Shown here: one piece after another, positions 1-11,352 of the stretch
How the letters are laid out: every line of letters starts with the position of its first letter
How positions within the stretch are numbered: the first letter of the stretch is position 1
Virus record (IMG/VR): IMGVR_UViG_2585427742_000014
Source of the DNA: a virus
Lineage: Duplodnaviria > Heunggongvirae > Uroviricota > Caudoviricetes
Strand: one strand, 5' to 3'
DNA length: 11,352 nucleotides
The notes under the pieces: generated by a model
The model's input: only the letters and a program-made list of their open reading frames with translations
Database searches by the model: none
Told to the model about the DNA's origin: nothing
Made by a program: the position numbers and the translations under genes

Positions 1-147
1 ATGGCAAAGCCGATCATCACGCTCAATGGCCTAAAAATCGTCATTATGTTGGGAATGCTGGTCATTATTCTCTGCGGTATCCGTTTTGCCGCCGAGATCA
101 TCGTGCCGTTTATTCTCGCATTATTTATTGCTGTTATATATAACTAA
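1..147 (+). pseudogene. tqsA: 48-codon ORF at the window start; N-terminal fragment of an inner-membrane protein resembling the AI-2 exporter TqsA/YdgG family, apparently cut short at the island junction
   Basis: Own translation [48 protein letters not shown], hydrophobic and TM-like. From memory the first ~45 residues match E. coli TqsA, after which the frame diverges and stops. Unverified recall. Confidence 0.4.
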
Positions 148-211: not shown

Positions 212-233
212 TGACTACACCAGTGACTACACC
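212..233. repeat. Tandem direct repeat TGACTACACC x2 (212-221, 224-233); candidate integrase arm-type binding sites near the island end
   Basis: Exact 10-mer repeated with a 2-bp spacer, seen directly. Placement near the presumed att junction fits arm sites of P4-type integrases; function is inferred. Confidence 0.45.
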
Positions 234-342
234 GTTCGGTGCACTGTATGAAACAACGTGGAACAAATAGACACAAGAAATATACAGGCGGGTCATCTTT
301 CCAGGGGGAAGCGCGCTAATTCATGAGGGGCGTTAATGTTGA

Positions 343-598: not shown

Positions 599-603
599 AC
601 TCG

Positions 604-885
604 TTAACGCCGTAACCGCTCCGGCTTCTTCCAGTGGTACGTAATTTTCTCCGTTTCCCGATACAGTGCCACGCGGCGATTGTAGGCCAGCATTTCAAGA
701 ACGCGGATCCGTATGTTGCGCATATCCACATCATTAAGCTGGATACCATCACGGCGCATCACCTCAGCAACCACACGCGCGTAATTTTCGGCGGTCACGC
801 TGTCCGGCTGCGTGGCCTGTTCGTCATGCTGCTGGCTGATTCCGGTAACGCGGCGGATTAATCCCAGTAGTTCGGCTTCTGTCAT
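604..885 (-). CDS. Hypothetical protein (~93 aa); credible distal part of the 159-aa ORF 604..1083
   Basis: Internal ATG at 885 preceded by a G-rich stretch. The upstream part of the long ORF runs across the cos site and is low-complexity (FCACPVHGKH...), so the start was trimmed. No family recognised. Confidence 0.4.
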   Translation of the reverse strand: MTEAELLGLIRRVTGISQQHDEQATQPDSVTAENYARVVAEVMRRDGIQLNDVDMRNIRIRVLEMLAYNRRVALYRETEKITYHWKKPERLRR

Positions 886-920
886 TGTGCCCCCATCGCT
901 CTGATAGTCTGGTGTCGTCG

Positions 921-1100
921 GGTCCTTCCTGGAATTATGGCCCGTTACGGGGCGGCGACCTCGCGCGTTTTCACTATTTATGAAAATTTTTCGGGATCCA
1001 TGTCCGGTTTCTCTGCAAGTTAACCATATGAAAAATATAAAAACATGCTTTCCATGAACCGGACATGCGCAAAAAACAGACACTAAAACCGGACATCGAA
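921..1100 (+). other. cos-1: lambda-type cohesive-end site in plus orientation (cosQ-like flank, cosN 950-961 GGGCGGCGACCT, cosB-like region with three R-like elements and an AT-rich spacer)
   Basis: CGTTACG|GGGCGGCGACCT|CGCGCGTTTTCACTATTTATGAAAATTTTTCGG matches the phage lambda cos junction as I recall it (GGTTACG|GGGCGGCGACCT|CGCGGGTTTTCGCTATTTATGAAAATTTTCCGG). Downstream: ATGTCCGGTT at 1000-1009, AT-rich 1011-1050, AACCGGACAT at 1057-1066 and 1087-1096. Confidence 0.75.
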
Positions 1101-1164
1101 CCAGTTAACCGAAAGTGTGCACAAATCACATGCATTGCTGCGAGTGATTAACAAGTTATCGGCT

Positions 1165-1599
1165 TTACTGTTCTGTATCGGCTGATTGCTCCATGCTGGC
1201 ACGGCGAACGCTTATGGCATGACGCCACCCAGCCAGAAAGCCAGCCATTTTATTTCGTGCCTTGCTCACATCTTCCGGTGAATAGCCGTAAATCTGCAAA
1301 CCTTCATCAAATCGATGTTCTGTTTCTTCACTGGAGTACTCGTCACGCTCAGATGAAAGCAGCCTGGCAAACATAATTTTTTCCAGCGCACTGGTTTCTA
1401 CGTGATATCTGATGGTCTCAAGACGGCTTTTACCTGAAGACCAAAGCAATGTATGCCCGATGTGATAACCGCCAGACTTTCCGCGATCCGCATTAAGATA
1501 CGGCATCCCCTGTTTGGTCCATGCGCGAATAGTGGTTCTGTTAACCTTGAAATGTTCAGCTATTTCCTGCTGACTTACAAAACAAGCTTTATCAATCAT
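1165..1599 (-). CDS. Nu1-like small-terminase DNA-binding protein with a divergent C-terminus; candidate packaging-redirection factor (Rpp-like) or island TerS
   Basis: N-terminus VSQQEIAEHFKVNRTTIRAWTKQGMPYL resembles the winged-HTH of lambda gpNu1 (KKQLADIFGASIRTIQNWQEQGMPVL, from memory). At 144 aa it is shorter than Nu1 and the C-terminal half is unrelated. A cos site lies ~90 bp upstream. Confidence 0.7.
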   Translation of the reverse strand: MIDKACFVSQQEIAEHFKVNRTTIRAWTKQGMPYLNADRGKSGGYHIGHTLLWSSGKSRLETIRYHVETSALEKIMFARLLSSERDEYSSEETEHRFDEGLQIYGYSPEDVSKARNKMAGFLAGWRHAISVRRASMEQSADTEQ

Positions 1600-1733
1600 A
1601 ATGTTACCTTAACTGCATGGTTAAATATTAATCAAGTGGTGGTGGTGTCACCTTCACGGAAAAACGTCATAAATAGCGAAAACCCGCGAGGTCGCCGCCC
1701 CGTAACGGGTCCATAATTCCAGGAAGGACCCGT
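1600..1733 (-). other. cos-2: lambda-type cos site in minus orientation (cosN at 1689-1700 as reverse complement), in the lambda-like position immediately upstream of the Nu1-like gene
   Basis: Minus strand reads ACGGGTCCTTCCTGGAATTATGGACCCGTTACG|GGGCGGCGACCT|CGCGGGTTTTCGCTATTTATGACGTTTTTCCGTGAAGG. The 22 nt after cosN are identical to lambda as recalled, and CGTTTTTCCGTG resembles lambda R3. Confidence 0.75.
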
Positions 1734-1755
1734 AAAAAAGCCGGATTTCTCCGGC
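1734..1755 (-). terminator. Rho-independent terminator for the capsid operon (GCCGGA-TTTC-TCCGGC stem-loop followed by T6 on the minus strand)
   Basis: Hairpin 1740-1755 and A6 at 1734-1739 (T6 on the minus strand), 7 nt past the stop of the 1762..2175 ORF. Confidence 0.6.
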
Positions 1756-1761
1756 CTTGTC

Positions 1762-2175
1762 TCAGATGGTTTTCAGTATGCGATCGATGTCGCCGTCATC
1801 GCCCTGGTTTCTGCCATCGTATGCCATGCCAGCTGATACGGCTTGCGGGCTGTGCATGTCCATAAAGTTTTCAAAGGCTGCGGTAAGTTCCGGCGCAACC
1901 TTCGGACGTTCCTGCTCTATGGTCATGCTAAGGATGCTTTTAGCCGTACCAACATCGATACAAGGCACGTTTGCCATTGCACGCAACAGCGGCTGATAGT
2001 CTTTATGCTCATGAAGCGCCATAATCGCATCAGCGCGCGGCTTGTCCTGCTCTTCCAGTTTGTTTAGTTGATATACGGCCTCATAGGTTGATAAACCTCT
2101 GTCAGCCATTGCCCGCGCTTCGGCTTTAAATTTACTCGCCAGCGGTAGCGTCATGATGCTTTCATTCGTTGCCAT
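1762..2175 (-). CDS. Hypothetical protein (137 aa), last gene of the capsid operon
   Basis: ORF track; sits 12 nt downstream of the gpD-like gene and just before the terminator. No family recognised. Confidence 0.55.
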   Translation of the reverse strand: MATNESIMTLPLASKFKAEARAMADRGLSTYEAVYQLNKLEEQDKPRADAIMALHEHKDYQPLLRAMANVPCIDVGTAKSILSMTIEQERPKVAPELTAAFENFMDMHSPQAVSAGMAYDGRNQGDDGDIDRILKTI

Positions 2176-2187
2176 CGTTCCCCCTGC

Positions 2188-2523
2188 TTATCGGGCCAGC
2201 GGCTGAACGGATACGCCGGAACCCGCAAAGGCGGCGCATTTTTTCGCATCGGTGTCGACGCTCTCAGGCCAGTTAACGGCGGCAATATTGAATATCCCCG
2301 TCTTGTAACACTGTGCTGATTTCTGCTTTGACGTGTCCACAGGGTACGAGGTCAGATAAACAGCCTTGCCAGATTCCTTACCATCCCACGGCTTAAACTC
2401 GCCATTGTCCGCCAGCATCAGCGGGGTAAATTCCTGAATAACGCCAGCATCAGCGGCAAAATGTACCAGCGTCGTGGCGACCTGCTGACTGCCTGCAAAT
2501 AACTCAATGTATGGAGTGTCCAT
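2188..2523 (-). CDS. Head decoration protein, lambda gpD-like
   Basis: 111 aa; TPLMLADNGEFKPWDGKESGKAV...CYKTGIFNIAAVNWPESVDTDAKKCAAFAGSGVSVQ parallels lambda gpD (TPLMLDTSSRKLVAWDG...[36 protein letters not shown], from memory). Lies directly downstream of the capsid gene. Confidence 0.8.
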   Translation of the reverse strand: MDTPYIELFAGSQQVATTLVHFAADAGVIQEFTPLMLADNGEFKPWDGKESGKAVYLTSYPVDTSKQKSAQCYKTGIFNIAAVNWPESVDTDAKKCAAFAGSGVSVQPLAR

Positions 2524-2534
2524 AGAATCCCCCG

Positions 2535-3590
2535 TTAACCAATTTTGACGGTAACAAATTTGCGAATATCTGCCGGAACCGGCTGCGGTGCGCTGTGCGT
2601 CTGCACGTACTCAATCGCCGGATCGCCGTCCTCAATCCAGTTTTTCGGGTAAAACATGTTTTGCGTTGCGCCCGTTCTTACTGCGTCCTGATCCATAATC
2701 GCACCATAGGCCACCAGCCCTTTATTGTTGGTGTTGCCCAGAACCAGCAAATCAGGCTCAAGGAAATATTTTTCTGTGCCGTCGCTGTCAGTGTATTTGC
2801 CGGAATAGACGATAAGGGCAATATCGCCCAGATAGCCTTTAAAGCTCACCACTTCGCCCAGGTTTTTACAGGCCAGCTCTGCGGCGGACTCTGAACCACG
2901 GGAAAGATCGTACAGCTCACGGAATTTTTTAAAGCTGCGTAACGTTCGCCATACCTCAGCGCCCATAATCATGACGTTTGCGGGGCAACCAGCCTGATCA
3001 GCATAAAGCTCGATGTCATAGATTGGGTCGTGCATGTCTTTATCCTGCTCGGACCATTTTTTACCCTTGGCCTGCTCTATGATGCAGTTTTCCGGTATTT
3101 TCCAGTCGATTTCATAGCGTTCTATGCCTTCGCCCTCAATGATGTTTTTTCCGGTCGTTACCGCATTCACCGCCAGCCATTCCACGCGTGCCTTAATGGC
3201 GTTTATCTGGCGGCGCATGTTGCCAGTAATCAGGCGCATACGGCGATAGGTAGGGTCGTTAAGCTGTGCCGGATCTTCTCCAGCCATGCGCATGATGGTT
3301 TTCGTTGGATCGATTTCGTGCTTTGGCTTCATGTAGCCAGGTTTGATTGTGCTGGTTTCGTACCCTTTATCGCGCTGAACCTGGCTACCCACCATAGGCG
3401 AACAAAACGCCGACATGGTGACTTCTTCAATGTCCAGGGTATCCAGCATGATGTTTTGCGTGCTGAATGTCGCCACGTTCGGGAAAAACAGCGTGGTAAA
3501 CAGAGGGCTGAATTTAAAATCCGCAATATCCCCGCGATTCAGGTACATGAAAAGCTGGTTAGTGTTAAGTGCCGTTGCTTTGCCTGCCAT
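2535..3590 (-). CDS. Major capsid protein, lambda gpE family
   Basis: 351 aa; shared motifs with lambda gpE as recalled: DFKFSPLF / KFKFDPLF, PGYMKPKHEI / PGYVKPKHEV, DPTYRRMRLI / DPAYRRRRII, YPKNWIEDGDPAIEY / YPKNWVTTGDPAREF. GGGGG-type RBS 6 nt upstream. Confidence 0.9.
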   Translation of the reverse strand: MAGKATALNTNQLFMYLNRGDIADFKFSPLFTTLFFPNVATFSTQNIMLDTLDIEEVTMSAFCSPMVGSQVQRDKGYETSTIKPGYMKPKHEIDPTKTIMRMAGEDPAQLNDPTYRRMRLITGNMRRQINAIKARVEWLAVNAVTTGKNIIEGEGIERYEIDWKIPENCIIEQAKGKKWSEQDKDMHDPIYDIELYADQAGCPANVMIMGAEVWRTLRSFKKFRELYDLSRGSESAAELACKNLGEVVSFKGYLGDIALIVYSGKYTDSDGTEKYFLEPDLLVLGNTNNKGLVAYGAIMDQDAVRTGATQNMFYPKNWIEDGDPAIEYVQTHSAPQPVPADIRKFVTVKIG

Positions 3591-3796
3591 TATTCACCCC
3601 CATAATTTTTATGCATCCCAAGCGCCGCAAGTAAATAAGAGCGTACAAGTGAACCTATCGACGGCTCCGGCGTCATCAGCGGATCCAGTCCAGCCGCCAC
3701 GCCAGCCTCATAGTTTTTTTTGTGGCGCTGCTTGAGCACCTCCACGATTTCGGGGCTTATGTACACCGAAACACCGCCTTTTTTCTCTTCAGCCAT
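3590..3796 (-). CDS. Hypothetical small protein (68 aa), first gene of the capsid operon, translationally coupled to the capsid gene
   Basis: Stop overlaps the capsid ATG (TAATG); AGAGGAA-type RBS upstream. No family recognised. Confidence 0.5.
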   Translation of the reverse strand: MAEEKKGGVSVYISPEIVEVLKQRHKKNYEAGVAAGLDPLMTPEPSIGSLVRSYLLAALGMHKNYGGE

Positions 3797-3961
3797 AGTA
3801 AGAAATTCCTCTTCGACTTAAAAAATCATAACTGGATGTTCATCCAGCTCTGATTATAATCATGATTGCATTTTGTGCAATGATATTGAGTTGTGTTGCA
3901 AATTATGAAATGATGATCCCGATCATGTGTGTCAGTGCACCAAAAAGCCTCATATGCAAAA

Positions 3962-3998
3962 GCCCGATAAGCCACCTCTGACCTTATCGGGCTTTTTT
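3962..3998 (+). terminator. Terminator-like hairpin (GCCCGATAAG / CTTATCGGGC stem, 11-nt loop, T6 on the plus strand) in the capsid-operon upstream region
   Basis: 10-bp perfect stem at 3962-3971 / 3983-3992 followed by TTTTTT at 3993-3998. No plus-strand ORF lies upstream; only 4 U would follow on the minus strand. Confidence 0.5.
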
Positions 3999-4099
3999 AT
4001 CTGCCTGCAAAGATGTCGAACAAAAATTAACCACAACCATCATCTTTTTTGCATCAAAACAATTAAAAACAATAAATTACGCTCATGATGATGATGACG

Positions 4100-4173
4100 A
4101 TAAAATCACAAAAATGCGCTTTTTTCCGCGCCTCCCGCCCCGTGTTCAGCCCCCCCCCGCCAGGAGGACCCGT
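4100..4173 (-). other. Degenerate cos-like remnant (cosQ-like GGACCCGT flank plus ACGGGGCGG, no intact cosN)
   Basis: Minus strand reads CGGGTCCTCCTGGCGGGGGGGGGCTGAACACGGGGCGGGAGGCGCGGAAAAAAGCGCATTTTTGTGA, versus cos-2 CGGGTCCTTCCTGG...ACGGGGCGGCGACCTCGCGGGTTTTCGCTATTTATGA. Partial similarity only. Confidence 0.3.
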
Positions 4174-4195
4174 AAAAAAGCCGGATTGCTCCGGC
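4174..4195 (-). terminator. Rho-independent terminator for the SSB operon; near-identical copy of the 1734-1755 terminator
   Basis: GCCGGA-TTGC-TCCGGC at 4180-4195 plus A6 at 4174-4179 (T6 on the minus strand), 17 nt past the SSB stop. The flanking ~40 bp is shared with 1719-1760. Confidence 0.6.
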
Positions 4196-4211
4196 TTCTG
4201 TCACTCGTCGC

Positions 4212-4634
4212 TTAAAACGGTATGTTATCCCCGTACGGATCATCATTCCCCGCCTGTTGTTTTGCCCTGTTCAGCGCGTCAGTAGCCTGGCCCTGTTGAC
4301 CTTTTTTGCCGCCCAGTCGCGCCGTTCGCGCACTGATTACACTGTCTGCGATAACCTGCCAGCCCTGCCGCGTTTCTCCGTTCTGCCCAGTCCACTGGCT
4401 GATCTGCATGTTACCCGCCACGCTCAGGAGTTCACCCTTGCGGTGCCTTTCCAGTGCTTCGGCCTGTCTGCCAAATGCCAGGACGGATAACCACATCGTC
4501 GCCGTTCCGTCATCTGCCTGGCTGCACGGAAGGGGGACCGCCATACGCGCCAGCGTCATCGGTGTGCCCTTGCTGGTCTGTTTTACCTGCGGGTCGTCCA
4601 CCAGCCGCCCGTAAGCGGCTATCTGTGCTGTCAT
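4212..4634 (-). CDS. Single-stranded DNA-binding protein (SSB-like)
   Basis: 140 aa; an OB-fold-like pattern (GRLVDDPQ...TMWLSVLAFGRQAE...KGELLSVAGNMQISQWTGQNGETRQ) and an acidic C-terminal tip DDPYGDNIPF resembling the SSB DDDIPF tail. Confidence 0.75.
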   Translation of the reverse strand: MTAQIAAYGRLVDDPQVKQTSKGTPMTLARMAVPLPCSQADDGTATMWLSVLAFGRQAEALERHRKGELLSVAGNMQISQWTGQNGETRQGWQVIADSVISARTARLGGKKGQQGQATDALNRAKQQAGNDDPYGDNIPF

Positions 4635-5197: not shown

Positions 5198-6952
5198 TTA
5201 TAAAAACGCGTCGCACTCGTCTGTTGTTATTGCGTTAGTCTGCGTTACTCCCTTAACTTTCCGCGTAATATATTCATGTCCGTAAACTTTCGCGGCTGGC
5301 TTCATAGCCTTGCCAAAGTCATTTACGTTTAGCGGTTTGCTCCTGCCTGCGTACGCCATAAACGCCAGATAGACGCGGTAAAGGCTGTTTCTGGTCGTGT
5401 ACTTCACTGAATCGCCACCGCCGCCCATCATCAGGCCGCGTGCTTCCTCCAGAAAATTCAGGAACTGGCAAAACTCAATAACCGGATCCGTCTGTTGCTT
5501 TATTGCCAGTGCTTCATCACCGTCACGCTGTTCCAGTAGTAAAGCCCGTGCTTTCTCAGAGTCGGTAAAGTTCGCCAGCAATCGGCGGATAATGACAGGG
5601 ATTTCAGCCGCAATCTTTTCCGGTAGCTCCCTGTCTTTTTCGGCCTCACTGACGATATTGTCGAAACGGAAAATCACGCGACGACGTGCCACACCTCCGG
5701 CCCGTTCGGTGAATATCATCGGGTTGTTGTTGGTCGCCAGCACCACCGCCCTGATTACCGCCGTAAAACGCTTTTCATATTTCGGGTTAATTTCCACGGG
5801 GTCACCGCCCGTGATTTTCTTGATGCCCGTTCCTTCGCCTGTATATTTCGGCTGGTCAGCCAGGACGATAAGACGACTCCCGACAACCTGCGCACGTCCA
5901 CCAGCATCATCAAGCGATGTCATTTCAGCGCTTACCGTGTTCTGTTTCCCTGCCAGAAGGCTGGCTATGTGCGTGAATGTACTTTTACCGCTCCCGCCGT
6001 CTCCGGTGGCCTCAATAAACATCTGCCAGTCGTACCGGTTCGCCATAATCATGTACAGCGCGGCACATATACGCATCATCTTGCGCGGGTCTTTTCCGGC
6101 TGCGTGCTTAAGCCATTTATGAAAGTTTGGCGCGTTATCGCGGATGTTCTCCCCTGGTGCTGGTGGCGTGTACTCAATGCCGTTGTTCGTGGTGATCCAG
6201 TTCTCCGGCGTGTGCGGGGAAAATTCCCCCGTTTTCAGGTCAAGCGCACCATTGGCGAACGGCAGCAAATCGCCGGACGGCTCGCCCATTGGTTCGGCAA
6301 TAACTTTTAACGCTTCCACGGCGTTATTGATTACGCGCTTGCTGAAAGTGGCCCTGTGCTCTGAATAGATCGCCACCATTTCGCGGCTAAGTTCCATTGT
6401 GCTGACCGGACACCATACCCCGCCGCGCCATACGTGAACGATTTCACTTTCAGGATGTACGCAAACGCCATCAAAGCGATCGGCAAGCAGCTGCGCGCGC
6501 TCACTGTCCGCCATCTGCGAAAGTTGCGCCTTTTGCTTTACCGGAAGCTCAATGACCAGACCATCAGAAAGATTCTGGCGCTCACGGGCCAGATATTCGC
6601 GCCAGTTCTCCACCTTCTGACCGTGCATACCATCAGGGTAAAAATTTGCGTCCTGAATATCTGCCGCCGCCAGCTTCTGACCAATCTTTTTGGTCTCCAC
6701 TAAATCCAGTTCTCCGGCCTGGTACAGCCTTACGCGCTTTTTCCCATCCGGAACAATTTTCAGCGCATCAAGTTCGGCAAGCTGATTTGGCCCAAGCCAC
6801 ACAGGCGGCACATTATCGCCGGATGCGGGGCCGTCCTGCTCCTGCCACTGTTTTGCATGTGACCACGCATCACTACCCGCGAAAATAATTACCTCTGTGT
6901 CTTTGTGTTTTATTCCGCGTGGTTGTTTTTTTACGTTCGGTGCCAGTTTCAT
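5198..6952 (-). CDS. Primase-helicase (D5_N-like region plus SF3-type P-loop NTPase; phage/plasmid primase, P4 family C-terminal type)
   Basis: 584 aa; Walker A GDGGSGKST, preceded by a D5_N-like segment (FANGALDLKTGEFSPHTPENWITTN). Followed by the iteron origin. Confidence 0.85.
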   Translation of the reverse strand: MKLAPNVKKQPRGIKHKDTEVIIFAGSDAWSHAKQWQEQDGPASGDNVPPVWLGPNQLAELDALKIVPDGKKRVRLYQAGELDLVETKKIGQKLAAADIQDANFYPDGMHGQKVENWREYLARERQNLSDGLVIELPVKQKAQLSQMADSERAQLLADRFDGVCVHPESEIVHVWRGGVWCPVSTMELSREMVAIYSEHRATFSKRVINNAVEALKVIAEPMGEPSGDLLPFANGALDLKTGEFSPHTPENWITTNNGIEYTPPAPGENIRDNAPNFHKWLKHAAGKDPRKMMRICAALYMIMANRYDWQMFIEATGDGGSGKSTFTHIASLLAGKQNTVSAEMTSLDDAGGRAQVVGSRLIVLADQPKYTGEGTGIKKITGGDPVEINPKYEKRFTAVIRAVVLATNNNPMIFTERAGGVARRRVIFRFDNIVSEAEKDRELPEKIAAEIPVIIRRLLANFTDSEKARALLLEQRDGDEALAIKQQTDPVIEFCQFLNFLEEARGLMMGGGGDSVKYTTRNSLYRVYLAFMAYAGRSKPLNVNDFGKAMKPAAKVYGHEYITRKVKGVTQTNAITTDECDAFL

Positions 6953-7253: not shown

Positions 7254-7484
7254 TTATTCTCCGGTGTGGGGCGCTTTATTATTCTCGTGAATTGCCATAG
7301 CCTTATTGAGTTCATCAATAACAGGTGTCAATAATGTCTGAACAGCGGCAAACATTAATGATGAATGATCTTCGCCACCTTCCGGCACTTCAATTAATTT
7401 AATTAACAACGCATTCATTTCGCGTGCTTTAATTAATGCGTTTTCAGAGTGGATTAATACTTCAAAAGGGATTTTATGCATCAC
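7254..7484 (-). CDS. Hypothetical small protein (76 aa) in the AT-rich cassette
   Basis: ORF track; visibly AT-rich coding region; overlaps the upstream gene by 11 nt. Confidence 0.5.
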   Translation of the reverse strand: MMHKIPFEVLIHSENALIKAREMNALLIKLIEVPEGGEDHSSLMFAAVQTLLTPVIDELNKAMAIHENNKAPHTGE

Positions 7485-7704
7485 AAATTTTCTCCCTTAT
7501 TCTTTTAATGTCCTCATTAAGGATGTCTGTAACTTTTATCAGCGAGTTTTTGGCAATTATTTTTATTGTTTTAAGTTTTCTTTTGTCGTGCTCCGACTGT
7601 GATTTTCTCTCCATAATCTCCACCATGTGGGTAACATCAACGAGCGCACGTATCAGTATTTGCATTGCTTCTTCTGCTGCGTCCGGTGTGGTTTTATTGC
7701 ACAT
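7474..7704 (-). CDS. Hypothetical small protein (76 aa from the ATG at 7704; the ORF extends to 7758) in the AT-rich cassette
   Basis: Internal ATG at 7704 is preceded by GGAGGGG with a 5-nt spacer; the longer ORF start at 7758 would overlap the upstream gene by 65 nt. Confidence 0.5.
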   Translation of the reverse strand: MCNKTTPDAAEEAMQILIRALVDVTHMVEIMERKSQSEHDKRKLKTIKIIAKNSLIKVTDILNEDIKRIREKICDA

Positions 7705-7924
7705 GTACCCCTCCGCATTTTTTTTCGTTAGAAATAAGCGTTCTTCTTTCCTGTTCATCGCTCAGGAATACGCAGACCTCACCGCTAAGGCGTTTAAGTA
7801 AGCCGATGATTGCCCCTGATTCGCTGTCGGTCATCATGCCAGGGTAATCCTCTGCCAGTGCGCAAATAACTTCGATTTGGTGGGCGCGTTCTGCTGCCTG
7901 TTGTAGTGTGATTTCCTGACTCAT
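7694..7924 (-). CDS. Hypothetical small protein (76 aa)
   Basis: ORF track; ATGA overlap with the stop of the upstream 7921..8382 gene. Confidence 0.5.
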   Translation of the reverse strand: MSQEITLQQAAERAHQIEVICALAEDYPGMMTDSESGAIIGLLKRLSGEVCVFLSDEQERRTLISNEKKCGGVHVQ

Positions 7925-8382
7925 AAGCCTACCCCCTGACGAATACGGGCGACAAAAATCAGATGTGCGTGCGGCAGCTGTGCACGTGCTTCGCGCTCAG
8001 TGGCAGCGGTAACGGTGAATATTGCAATGCTGTCTGTCAGGCACTGCATAAAGCGCCAGACAAAATAAGGGCGTGCGGATACAGCCATGTGAAAGGCTCC
8101 CAGATGAATTTTAAGGAGTCTCGCTACTACGCTGTCAAACATGGTGGCGAGACGTAACAGGGTTGACAGACTGGTCATCTGGAAACCAGCGAGCACAAAG
8201 GCTCCCCCGTTACGCCCCGCCATAATGCGGGTATGGGTAGGTTTACGGACACAAAAAAACCGCTTATCGGATGTGGGCGGCTGTCCGCCAGATGTATTCA
8301 GGCTGTCAAACCCGGTCGCCATGTGGGCGACGGGGGAAGCATACAGCCCCGTGATAATTTTTTGCAAGCGGTTTTTACGCAT
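7921..8382 (-). CDS. Small protein, paralog 1, with a C-terminal motif shared with 8375..8578 (Icd-like/Ash-like small-protein type; start uncertain, alternative ATG at 8088)
   Basis: C-terminus YFVWRF...TAATEREARAQLPHAHLIFVARIRQG parallels the downstream paralog. The ATG at 8382 overlaps the upstream stop (ATGCGTAA) with AGGGG 7 nt upstream; the alternative ATG at 8088 has GGAG 8 nt upstream. Confidence 0.45.
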   Translation of the reverse strand: MRKNRLQKIITGLYASPVAHMATGFDSLNTSGGQPPTSDKRFFCVRKPTHTRIMAGRNGGAFVLAGFQMTSLSTLLRLATMFDSVVARLLKIHLGAFHMAVSARPYFVWRFMQCLTDSIAIFTVTAATEREARAQLPHAHLIFVARIRQGVGL

Positions 8383-8578
8383 GATATGACCCCTGGCGAA
8401 TACGGGCAGCGAATACCATCACGCAGCCAGCCGGAGATTGCTGACGCGCTTCCTGTTCGCTGGTGGCCTCGATGGTAATCACGCGCGGTTGTGCCGTGCT
8501 CAGGGCGATAAAACGCCAGATGTATTTATTCAGGTTGTACGAGTCCCGCCCTTGCGGGTGTCTGGTATAATTTCTCAT
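8375..8578 (-). CDS. Small protein, paralog 2 (67 aa), Icd-like/Ash-like type
   Basis: MRNYTRHPQGRDSYNLNKYIWRF...EATSEQEARQQSPAGCVMVFAARIRQG; GAGG 5 nt upstream of the ATG at 8578. This is the 3' end of the otherwise implausible 382-aa ORF. Family assignment is from memory and unverified. Confidence 0.5.
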   Translation of the reverse strand: MRNYTRHPQGRDSYNLNKYIWRFIALSTAQPRVITIEATSEQEARQQSPAGCVMVFAARIRQGSYHA

Positions 8579-8650
8579 AGCTACCTCGATACTTTCGCTA
8601 TCGTTGGTGGTTAGAAGCCCTGCATGTGTTCCAGCACTGCGGGGCTTTGC

Positions 8651-8755
8651 TGTACATACACCACAATCATTGGTGTGTGTACAGATTAAATTTAAGTGCG
8701 CTACAGTGTCAAGTGTTTTATTTACACACCTTTTGGTGTAATGTATGCACACCTC
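8651..8755. promoter_or_regulatory. Divergent promoter/operator region with inverted repeats built on CACACC / GGTGTG
   Basis: GTACATACACCA (8652-8663) and TGGTGTGTGTAC (8671-8682) form a 12-bp inverted repeat with one mismatch and a 7-bp spacer; further ACACACC / GGTGT / CACACC copies at 8724-8753. Lies between divergent genes starting at 8578 (minus) and 8775 (plus). Confidence 0.45.
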
Positions 8756-8774
8756 AAAATAACCGGACATTCTG

Positions 8775-9080
8775 ATGGCAACAGGAAATATCAACAGCAG
8801 ATCGCAAATGAAAAATATCCGCTTCCCCCATGATGTAATCGAGGAAATGGAAAATTCGAAAACGGAAGGGGAAACAATAGCCGCTTTCGTGATTACAGCC
8901 GTTCGCGGTGAGATCGCCCGCCGCCAGGCAGAAGGAAGCGGAGAAAATCCCCTGGTTTCTTCGCTCGATGCACTGGCGCAGGTGGAAAAAATCGGAGTCA
9001 AAGCAGCCGAGGAGATCGGGCAACTCATCACCGTCGCGCGTGAAGAACTCCAGCGTCGCAAGGCCAAAGAGCAGGAGTGA
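8775..9080 (+). CDS. Ribbon-helix-helix-like DNA-binding protein (101 aa; start uncertain)
   Basis: KNIRFPHDVIEEMENSKTEGETIAAFVITAVRGEIARR fits a beta-strand/helix/helix RHH pattern; non-repetitive charged composition. Weak SD at 8775. Confidence 0.55.
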   Translation: MATGNINSRSQMKNIRFPHDVIEEMENSKTEGETIAAFVITAVRGEIARRQAEGSGENPLVSSLDALAQVEKIGVKAAEEIGQLITVAREELQRRKAKEQE

Positions 9081-9137
9081 CCATCACCAGCGCCGTGGTG
9101 TAAGGTATTACGGCGCATTGCTATGCAGGACAACACA

Positions 9138-9311
9138 ATGACCGATAAAGAATTGACCAAAACATTATCACCGGCACGGAAAAGACGGCGCAGAAAGATA
9201 GAGCATGAATCAGAAAGATTCGCGCCATGTGCTTTTGCCCTTGAGCAATTCCTTAAAGAGTACAGGGAAAAGCGCTCATTGCAGGTATGGCAACGAACTG
9301 AACCAGACTGA
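9138..9311 (+). CDS. Small basic protein (57 aa from the ATG at 9138; the ORF starts at 9123)
   Basis: AGGA 7 nt upstream of the ATG at 9138; contains ARKRRRRK; followed by a strong terminator. Confidence 0.4.
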   Translation: MTDKELTKTLSPARKRRRRKIEHESERFAPCAFALEQFLKEYREKRSLQVWQRTEPD

Positions 9312-9406
9312 TTGCATTGCCCACCAGCCTGATAACGGCTATCATCCCCGTGCTTATGTTTGGGATCACACACACAAACGGCGCAGCGGGTTATCTGTTC
9401 AGAAAG

Positions 9407-9434
9407 GCGGCTCCATTTCGGGGCCGCTTTTTTT
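9407..9434 (+). terminator. Rho-independent terminator of the plus-strand RHH operon
   Basis: 8-bp stem GCGGCTCC / GGGGCCGC (one G-U pair), loop ATTTC, followed by T7 at 9428-9434. Confidence 0.7.
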
Positions 9435-9580
9435 ATACCTGAAAAACCCCAATTTTGTTGTTTTTCAGTTTCACCAGGGCGAACGAATCCCCGCCCACGT
9501 TCTGGCGTATATTCAATCTTCATGGTTATAGCTCTGTGTTCAGATGATTGATGTGTGGCGGCTGCGTGCCGCCAGCGTGA

Positions 9581-9850
9581 TTAATGAACTGCCTTGCAGC
9601 TATCCTTCCAGGCCAGAACCTCGGATAAAGACCAGCCAACGGAACGACCGCCAAGTTTACGACGTGATGGGAATTGTCCGGCCTTTTCCAGGCGGTAGCG
9701 ACACGTACGGCTAAGGCCGGTTAGTTTTTCGCATTCTTTTTCACGTATAAACCGATCAGTGCTTAACACTATTGCCCCCCTTTCGTTTCTTAAAGAGTCA
9801 TCAGGTGTCTTATTGTGTCGTATTGTTCCCGCTAGAGTGATGAATGGCAA
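9581..9850 (-). CDS. alpA: AlpA-family phage transcriptional regulator (MerR-like HTH)
   Basis: 89 aa; EKLTGLSRTCRYRLEKAGQFPSRRKLGGRSVGWSLSEVLAW matches the AlpA / CP4-57 regulatory protein signature as recalled; adjacent to the integrase. Confidence 0.85.
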   Translation of the reverse strand: MPFITLAGTIRHNKTPDDSLRNERGAIVLSTDRFIREKECEKLTGLSRTCRYRLEKAGQFPSRRKLGGRSVGWSLSEVLAWKDSCKAVH

Positions 9851-10134: not shown

Positions 10135-11352
10135 TTATTTTCTTCTGGCTACGGGTAGCGTGGTTACGTTTTCATGTGTTCCCGCCAGTATCCCTAACCG
10201 CTCCGTCCACATATCCAGCGCATTGCGTTTCGCATCCAGATAACGGGAATGATTATAAACTCGCTGCATTCCTGGCATCTGGTGGCCTGTAAGCTGCTCC
10301 ACGACATGCGGATCAACGCCTAAATCGTTCAGCATGGTTGTAAAGGTGCGCCGGATGTCATGCAGTGACCAGTGAGGGTGATTAAGCCTCCTGTGCGCTA
10401 ATCTTCCATACTGCGATACGCTGGCCTCCTGTTTCACTTCCCCCAGCAATAAGCCCGTGTGCCTGTTCTGCTCCACCAGCTGCGTGACGAACGGCAGGAT
10501 CGCTTCCGGTATGGGCCGGAATATTGCGACCTTCGTTTTGCTGTGCTCCTTCGGAACGGTCCATAGCATTTCCGTAAAATCCCACTCCCCGATCTCCGAT
10601 AACCTCAGTTCTACCGTTCTGGCTCCGAAGACAATCAGGAGGCGGATTAACGCGACGTAGTAAGGGGAGAATATTTTTTTGTCCAGTGCCTGCAATAATT
10701 CGCCAAGTTCTTTGTTACTTAAGACACGTTCGCTTATATCCGGTTTTTTCCCAACGTCCGCCACGTTCAGATCGTCCAGAACGTTGCTGATTGCATAGCG
10801 CCGCCTACGGCAGAACTTAAGCGCCTGTTTGCACGCCTGTAGCACGAATCCGGCAGTAACAGGCGTTCGCTTTGCCACCTGGTCAAAACAGGCCAGCCAG
10901 TGCCGTAGCTCGCATTTATCCAGCGGCATAGCACCAATCTGCTGTATTACGTGATTATTAAGTCGCCTTTTCAGGGCGATATAATCCACGCGGTTTTCCT
11001 TTACGTAATACTCAAGCCAGTAGGTGAGCGCATCGCCAACCGTTACGGGCTTTAACGCTTCCTGTACGGTGTAATTCATCTCATGACGTGGATTTTTCCC
11101 CTCAGCCAGCCATGTGCGACACTGTGCGGCTTTTTCCCTGGCTGCTTTCAGGCTCAGATCAGGATAACTTCCCAGCTTAATGCGTTCGGGTCGTGTCTCC
11201 CTTCCCGTTCCGGCCCTGTATGTGAAATACCAGGTCAATTTCCCTGATGTTAAATATTTCACGCTCAGGTTTCCGCCATCACTATAAAACGTGTTTTTCT
11301 CCGCTGGCTTACCATGAAGTTTCCTTAGCAAGGTATCGCTCAGTTTGTTCAT
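10135..11352 (-). CDS. int: Tyrosine site-specific integrase, P4 / CP4-57 type
   Basis: 405 aa; N-terminal arm-binding-like region (LSDTLLRKLHGKPAEKNTFYSDGGNLSVKY), catalytic-region motifs HDIRRT and RVYNHS. The start codon sits at the window edge. Confidence 0.9.
   Translation of the reverse strand: MNKLSDTLLRKLHGKPAEKNTFYSDGGNLSVKYLTSGKLTWYFTYRAGTGRETRPERIKLGSYPDLSLKAAREKAAQCRTWLAEGKNPRHEMNYTVQEALKPVTVGDALTYWLEYYVKENRVDYIALKRRLNNHVIQQIGAMPLDKCELRHWLACFDQVAKRTPVTAGFVLQACKQALKFCRRRRYAISNVLDDLNVADVGKKPDISERVLSNKELGELLQALDKKIFSPYYVALIRLLIVFGARTVELRLSEIGEWDFTEMLWTVPKEHSKTKVAIFRPIPEAILPFVTQLVEQNRHTGLLLGEVKQEASVSQYGRLAHRRLNHPHWSLHDIRRTFTTMLNDLGVDPHVVEQLTGHQMPGMQRVYNHSRYLDAKRNALDMWTERLGILAGTHENVTTLPVARRK

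Follow-up and report, generated by a model that had tools for sequence, protein, structure and literature searches.

An rppA allele in an EcCICFT073-type PICI inserted in tqsA of Escherichia coli strain 300033

The window analyzed here, a stretch of 11,352 nucleotides, is an entire EcCICFT073-type PICI that lies within tqsA of Escherichia coli strain 300033. With a probability that we put at about 96%, one of its genes encodes RppA of this island type, with a packaging-redirection mechanism as for the 99%-identical prototype. RppA of EcCICFT073 is the prototype "redirecting phage packaging" protein, which binds the helper TerS and sends packaging to the island (PMC6739421). The window gene is thus already known: because its product is identical to RppA at 142 of 144 positions and matches the RppA sequence published in Figure S1 of PMC6739421, it is an allele of the characterised prototype rppA, beyond an Rpp-like candidate. 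An earlier note on this DNA had proposed that the gene fits the role of a PICI-encoded Rpp protein that pairs with the helper TerS in a heterocomplex and directs it to the cos of the island. That proposal is upheld by the near-identity to RppA, by the homology to RppC, and by the context, in which a cos1-rppA-cos2 arrangement is accompanied by int, alpA, and primase genes. The function of RppA in this particular island is predicted from its near-identity to the prototype.

The rppA gene and its product

The ORF lies exactly at the coordinates of the earlier note (1165-1599), on the minus strand, which the note does not give. The product of the window gene begins with MIDKACFVSQQEIAEHFKVNRTTIRAWTKQGMPYLNADRGK and also contains the C-terminal string quoted in the earlier note. 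Its counterpart in CFT073 is C_RS07025 (c1503, WP_000565609.1), which likewise encodes 144 aa. The two proteins align without gaps (99% identity) and differ only at position 62, which is T in the window and A in CFT073, and at position 129, which is I and V, respectively; residues 1-50 are identical to the sequence in Figure S1. When the Protein Data Bank was searched with phmmer, window residues 2-125 matched RppC (6HLK, 6HN7) with E = 4.5e-31 and 111 bits, a span that covers the DNA-binding domain together with most of the C-terminal one. Homology to a characterised Rpp (RppA/RppB/RppC) is full-length. The EcCICFT073 protein, encoded by c1503, has 144 residues and shares about 44% identity with RppC (Fillol-Salom et al. 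2019, Mol Cell 75:1020; PMC6739421).

The positions that have been mutated in RppA, namely R21, T22, L51, and F121, are all kept in the window protein. Mutating R21/T22, L51 or F121 abolished cos1 targeting, TerS binding or dimerisation: the R21A/T22A protein retained interference and lost cos1-dependent transfer, L51D lost TerS binding, and F121R lost dimerisation (PMC6739421). The window protein reads N20, R21, T22, T23, I24, R25, A26, W27, T28, and K29 and, further on, D38, R39, G40, and K41; its N-terminal TerS-like winged HTH (wHTH) thus has the conserved DNA-reading residues listed in PMC6739421, namely R21, T22, R25, and K29 and a basic wing at 39/41. The C-terminal domain is recognised at the level of sequence, by the presence of L51 and F121 and by alignment with alpha4-alpha6 of RppC. 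The single-sequence AlphaFold2 model of the window protein has a mean pLDDT of 44 and a pTM of 0.32, too low for a fold search; the arrangement of its helices would suit an Rpp and was given no evidential weight.

The relation to lambda gpNu1 is confined to the N-terminus. In a BLASTP comparison with lambda Nu1 (NP_040580), residues 8-71 aligned with Nu1 residues 3-55 (19/64 identical, 30%; pairwise E = 2e-6), and 11 of the first 30 ungapped columns are identical, the QGMPxL motif among them. Positions 12-51 of the PHROG 57 profile (terminase small subunit; 199 positions) matched residues 7-46 (E = 4e-8), and phmmer matches to lambda TerS fragments were weak (E = 0.06-0.2), with E = 0.06-0.1 for the Nu1 DNA-binding-domain structures 1J9I and 6HN7_B. 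The window protein carries a wHTH of the gpNu1 N-terminal type; the earlier note had described its first ~30 residues as closely resembling that of Nu1, of which the homology stands, by PHROG 57 and BLASTP, whereas "closely" overstates 30% identity. The note was right that the protein is shorter than Nu1 (144 vs 181 aa, a difference of 37) and that its C-terminal half lacks a Nu1 counterpart: past residue 71, nothing meaningful aligned with Nu1 in BLASTP, and the C-terminal oligomerisation and TerL-binding region of Nu1 (residues ~100-181) was not found in the window protein. The reason is that this half constitutes the domain through which Rpp dimerises and docks on TerS.

For the window protein, the only Pfam and NCBIfam matches were generic HTH ones below threshold; for instance, the MerR HTH profile PF13411 scored 16.9 bits where the cut-off is 21.6 (E = 0.0068). 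A MerR/BldC/excisionase reading of the protein was rejected on the grounds of these sub-threshold matches and of the identity to RppA.

The cos sites and the surrounding island

The 12-nt lambda cohesive end GGGCGGCGACCT was found twice in the window, once per strand, with its first base at 950 (+) and at 1700 (-). Aligned with lambda cos, cos1 matches at 12/12 positions of the cohesive end, at 29/33 positions of bp 13-45, and at 14/65 positions of bp 46-110; since only 14/65 match in the last segment, the cosB of cos1 is non-lambda. The cosB of cos2 is its own and unrelated. Thus, rppA immediately follows a cos site whose cosQ-cosN is lambda-like and whose cosB is specific to the island, and its ATG is at bp 102 from the cohesive-end cut of cos1; Murialdo and Feiss described the start codon of PICI-C at an equal distance (bp 102) from the cos cut (PMC9026076). 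In Figure S1A of PMC6739421, the upstream site running into ATGATTGATAAAGC is labelled "EcCICFT073 cos1", and the plus-strand site, at 950 in the window, is labelled "cos2". In EcCICFT073, deletion of cos1 lowers transfer, deletion of cos2 does not, and the double deletion abolishes it (PMC6092414); cos2 is functional, is not stimulated by RppA, and is dispensable (PMC6092414; PMC6739421). Transfer of cos plasmids and swaps of cosB showed that RppA-stimulated transfer is conferred by the cosB of cos1 only (PMC6739421).

The window agrees essentially completely with CFT073 (98% overall) from cosN through rppA and cos2, two rppA codons excepted: cos1 is base-for-base that of EcCICFT073 from cosN to the rppA ATG (alignment columns 87-203), and cos2 is identical to its EcCICFT073 counterpart (alignment columns 700-900). 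The cosQ-side arm of cos1 differs from CFT073 at several bases (alignment columns 68-86) and matches instead the arm of the island's own cos2, with 25 nt that are 96% complementary. The two cos sites form an inverted repeat that brackets rppA, with arms at 919-996 (+) and 1654-1732 (-), and comparison of the arms suggests that sequence conversion between cos1 and cos2 may have taken place in this island. Four places in the strain 300033 chromosome match the cos-containing query, which hints at putative further lambda-type cos sites there.

A GC-rich, terminator-like hairpin occupies the stretch between the scaffold-like gene and cosQ of cos1 (Table 1). It folds as RNA with -18.3 kcal/mol (z = -2.4) and is kept in CFT073 (alignment columns 40-67). 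The hairpin was read by eye and folded separately; the pattern-based terminator scan missed it. Its location just upstream of cos1 raises the question of the route by which rppA is transcribed. Promoter-like pattern matches in the region numbered 4, vs 2.2 +/- 1.4 expected, no excess over chance. Because the proposed RppA site (cos1 bp 48-65) overlaps one of these promoter-like pairs, situated between the hairpin and the rppA start, RppA or RppA-TerS might autoregulate rppA, and the cosQ arm of cos1, if homogenised with cos2, might alter packaging termination; we consider this extension of the RppA reading improbable. Neither autoregulation of rppA nor homogenisation of the cosQ arm is described for EcCICFT073 in the published work on the island that we consulted.

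The window is 100% identical to a stretch of NZ_CM128588.1 (E. coli strain 300033). The AI-2 transporter gene tqsA is split by the island, with its N-terminal fragment at about window positions 1-147 and the rest just beyond the integrase (L001 15541-16446). A 23-bp direct repeat, TGACTACACCAGTGACTACACCG, occurs at window positions 212-234, with a second copy 38 bp past the right window end (L001 15390). On the minus strand, from the right end, the gene order is integrase, AlpA-type regulator, Icd-like and small ORFs, D5_N/DUF5906 primase, SSB, a 68-aa protein, gpE-like capsid, gpD-like decoration, a 137-aa protein, cos1, rppA, cos2, and a 93-aa protein. The island has a complete PICI backbone of int, alpA, primase, SSB, and capsid-like genes and no terminase. 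In agreement with the earlier note, which had seen no terminase large subunit in the window, none is listed by the Pfam/PHROG scans of the large ORFs or by the RefSeq annotation of the identical stretch; adjacent to rppA, the downstream sequence holds cos2 and then the hypothetical 93-aa protein in place of a large subunit gene.

The 137-aa protein upstream of cos1 matches phrog_1999, and also phrog_53 at profile positions 495-567. Deletion of the capsid or decoration gene of EcCICFT073 does not relieve interference, and the packaged DNA is phage-sized (PMC6092414). In the program-made ORF list, the 93-aa ORF is extended to 159 aa across cos2, an extension that is unlikely to be real. A 382-aa ORF of the same list, at 8375-9523, is not a RefSeq gene; Icd-like fragments are annotated there instead.

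Table 1. Features of the window and of the rppA product; nucleotide positions are those of the window
Feature	Position	Strand	Evidence or remark
93-aa protein, phrog_1561 (unknown function)	604-885	-	conserved; just beyond cos2
cos2, inverted vs cos1, downstream of rppA	917..1135	+	cosQ-like GGGTCCT 920-926, cohesive end 950-961
rppA allele, 144-aa redirecting-phage-packaging protein	1165..1599	-	intact ORF, ATG to stop
Winged-HTH DNA-binding domain, N-terminal	RppA residues ~1-64		limits carried over from RppC structure (PMC6739421)
C-terminal helical dimerisation and TerS-docking domain	RppA residues ~65-144		limits carried over from RppC structure (PMC6739421)
cos1, RppA-dependent packaging site of the island	1600..1733	-	lambda cos alignment; identity to EcCICFT073; label in Fig. 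S1A of PMC6739421
Sigma-70-like hexamers GTGACA-16-AATATT, 9/12 consensus	1651-1624	-	overlaps proposed R3-PICI (cos1 bp 48-65)
cos1 putative R3-PICI (bp 48-65), AGGTGACACCACCACCAC	1653->1636	-	proposal of PMC9026076
cos1 cohesive end GGGCGGCGACCT	1700->1689	-	
cos1 cosQ-like GGGTCCT	1731->1725	-	
GC-rich hairpin (GCCGGA-GAAA-TCCGGC) and T6, terminator-like	1734..1758	-	sequence reading; RNA fold
Island morphogenesis-like genes upstream of cos1	1762..3590	-	correspond to EcCICFT073 c1499/c1500 (PMC6092414)
137-aa protein	1762-2175	-	resembles only C-terminal (Nu3/scaffold-like) part of head-maturation protease profiles
Lambda gpD-like head decoration protein	2188-2523	-	Pfam HDPD E = 2.5e-17
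Lambda gpE-like major capsid protein	2535-3590	-	Phage_cap_E E = 2.6e-50
PICI primase/replicase (D5_N / DUF5906 / Pox_D5)	5198..6952	-	Pfam/PHROG, RefSeq annotation
AlpA-type small HTH regulator	9581..9769	-	RefSeq annotation of identical sequence (L001 13581-13769); position as in EcCICFT073
Tyrosine integrase	10135..11352	-	first 4 codons past window edge

Proposed packaging redirection and alternative readings

The mechanism has been established for the 99%-identical RppA and would presumably operate for the window allele in the following way. Upon induction of a lambda/phi80-type helper phage, the island would excise and replicate, and RppA would be made. The protein would dimerise via its C-terminal helices, and its N-terminal wHTH would stand in for the second Nu1 DNA-binding domain, so that a TerS-Rpp2-TerS heterocomplex forms. 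Such a hybrid would no longer recognise the R sites of the phage cosB, and packaging of phage DNA would therefore be blocked. Through the recognition helix of RppA (R21, T22), the complex would instead bind the island-specific cosB beside the lambda-like cosN of cos1. The TerL-binding tail, which RppA lacks, would be supplied by the TerS partner (hypothesis of PMC9026076), so that the phage TerL could nick the island cosN and island concatemers could enter the phage-made heads.

Published work on the prototype and its homologue bears on several of these steps. Expressed alone, c1503 blocks lambda and phi80 but not HK97; phage mutants that escape RppA map to TerS (E65K and others); and deletion of rppA lowers island transfer (PMC6739421). 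Two-hybrid and pull-down assays showed that RppA and RppC dimerise and interact with lambda TerS, and the structure of RppC has been solved alone and with lambda TerS 1-98 (6HLK, 6HN7; PMC6739421). In the RppC-TerS(1-98) crystal, the DNA-binding domain of Rpp sits where the second TerS DNA-binding domain would be, with helix alpha6 packed on the extended alpha3 of TerS (PMC6739421). From its near-identity to the prototype, we infer that the window allele would likewise bind TerS, block phage packaging, and promote packaging of the island; no feature of the sequence speaks against this.

Among the alternatives, a truncated, decaying Nu1 pseudogene left by a lambdoid prophage was the outcome of a homology search that the earlier note had named as speaking against its proposal. 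Such an origin might be read from the Nu1-homologous N-terminal wHTH, from the location of the gene after a lambda-like cosQ-cosN, as for nu1, and from the 37 missing residues. However, a recent truncation would be near-identical to Nu1, while the identity found is just 30% and ends at residue 71. Moreover, the C-terminal half, which does not align to frame-shifted Nu1, has its homologue in the folded domain by which RppC dimerises, with the alignment running from residue 2 through residue 125; the cosB is non-lambda and no terL remnant follows the gene; and the length of 144 aa is kept in CFT073, with full-length rppA copies in 97 complete E. coli genomes. The search thus excluded the simple pseudogene that the note had in mind, and the chance that the gene arose in this way is virtually nil.

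It is extremely improbable that the gene serves above all as a MerR/excisionase-type transcription factor of the island, such as an autoregulator or a late-gene regulator, instead of a packaging-redirection gene: all HTH matches fall under the curated cut-offs and cover only ~25 residues, the promoter match reaches 9/12 in a region where the number of such sites is within chance expectation, and the packaging role of a 99%-identical protein has been shown by genetics and structure, which makes any other primary role very unlikely. The two substitutions, A62T and V129I, together with the altered cosQ arm of cos1, could also mark an RppA allele with a shifted helper range or a weaker function, acting on another set of TerS proteins than the prototype does. 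Residue 129 is part of helix alpha6, which in RppC forms the homodimer and a four-helix bundle with alpha3 of TerS, and Rpp proteins vary in TerS affinity via partly conserved interface residues (PMC6739421); the identical allele also occurs in E. coli 042. Both substitutions are conservative, however, the mutationally defined positions are unchanged, and the cosN-cosB part of cos1 equals that of CFT073, and we therefore regard a shifted allele as very improbable and retain RppA with the function of its prototype as the preferred reading.

Distribution and comparison with known systems

With the gene alone as query, blastn gave matches in 110 of the 5,426 complete E. coli genomes searched (~2%), always on the chromosome. 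Among these 110 carriers, 39 have the gene at an identity of at least 99%, including the identical allele in 042 and a 99.5% identical one in CFT073; another 27 have it at 80-90% identity, and these rppA-like genes could be of the RppB type. The window RppA matched none of 50,697 phage records in tblastn at E <= 1e-3. The presence of rppA in E. coli chromosomes but in no phage record is as expected for a satellite-specific gene. In RefSeq, rppA is named "hypothetical protein" in all of the matches listed that overlap most of the gene, CFT073 included, and Pfam and NCBIfam contain no model naming Rpp proteins, despite the crystal structures published in 2019. An unlabelled gene for phage interference and island transfer is thus present in about 2% of complete E. 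coli genomes. The analysis adds little new biology, as publications from 2018-2022 already cover the mechanism, the structure of a homologue, both cos sites, and the island type; its practical value is the annotation of rppA. As the call made in the earlier note shows, an Rpp can be recognised from sequence alone.

Compared with lambda gpNu1 (DNA-binding-domain structure 1J9I), RppA shares the N-terminal winged HTH, the location of its gene directly after cosQ-cosN-cosB, and a role in choosing the DNA that is packaged. The two proteins differ in that RppA is 30% identical over ~64 residues only, recognises another cosB, and, in the model of Murialdo and Feiss, cannot recruit TerL alone (PMC9026076).

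EcCICFT073 is located at about 1,377,930-1,388,654 of NC_004431.1, and its gene order is that of the window read in reverse. Both islands carry rppA between cos1 and cos2, an identical cosN-cosB-ATG segment, flanking capsid-like, decoration-like, and 93-aa genes, and a common island backbone. Across the packaging and morphogenesis module (603-3998) the two islands agree at 95.8%, whereas the integrase region has only ~85% nucleotide identity. EcCICFT073 lies between roxA and phoQ, whereas the window island lies in tqsA, and the diverged integrase region is consistent with this different attachment site. The window is furthermore mosaic relative to EcCICFT073 (3999-4305, 7280-9475): the segment with the CFT073 PerC-family regulator is replaced by unrelated sequence, and the icd-like/ylcI region matches only in patches.

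RppC of EcCIEC2733.1 (6HLK; 6HN7 with lambda TerS 1-98) has R21, T22, R25, K29, and L51 in common with the window RppA, and a basic wing of K39/K41 where the window protein has R39/K41. It differs in its length of 153 aa, in position 30, which is R in RppC and Q in the window RppA, and in the residues of the alpha6 dimer interface, which are poorly conserved between the two. RppA and RppC do not heterodimerise, and lambda TerS is bound more tightly by RppC (PMC6739421).
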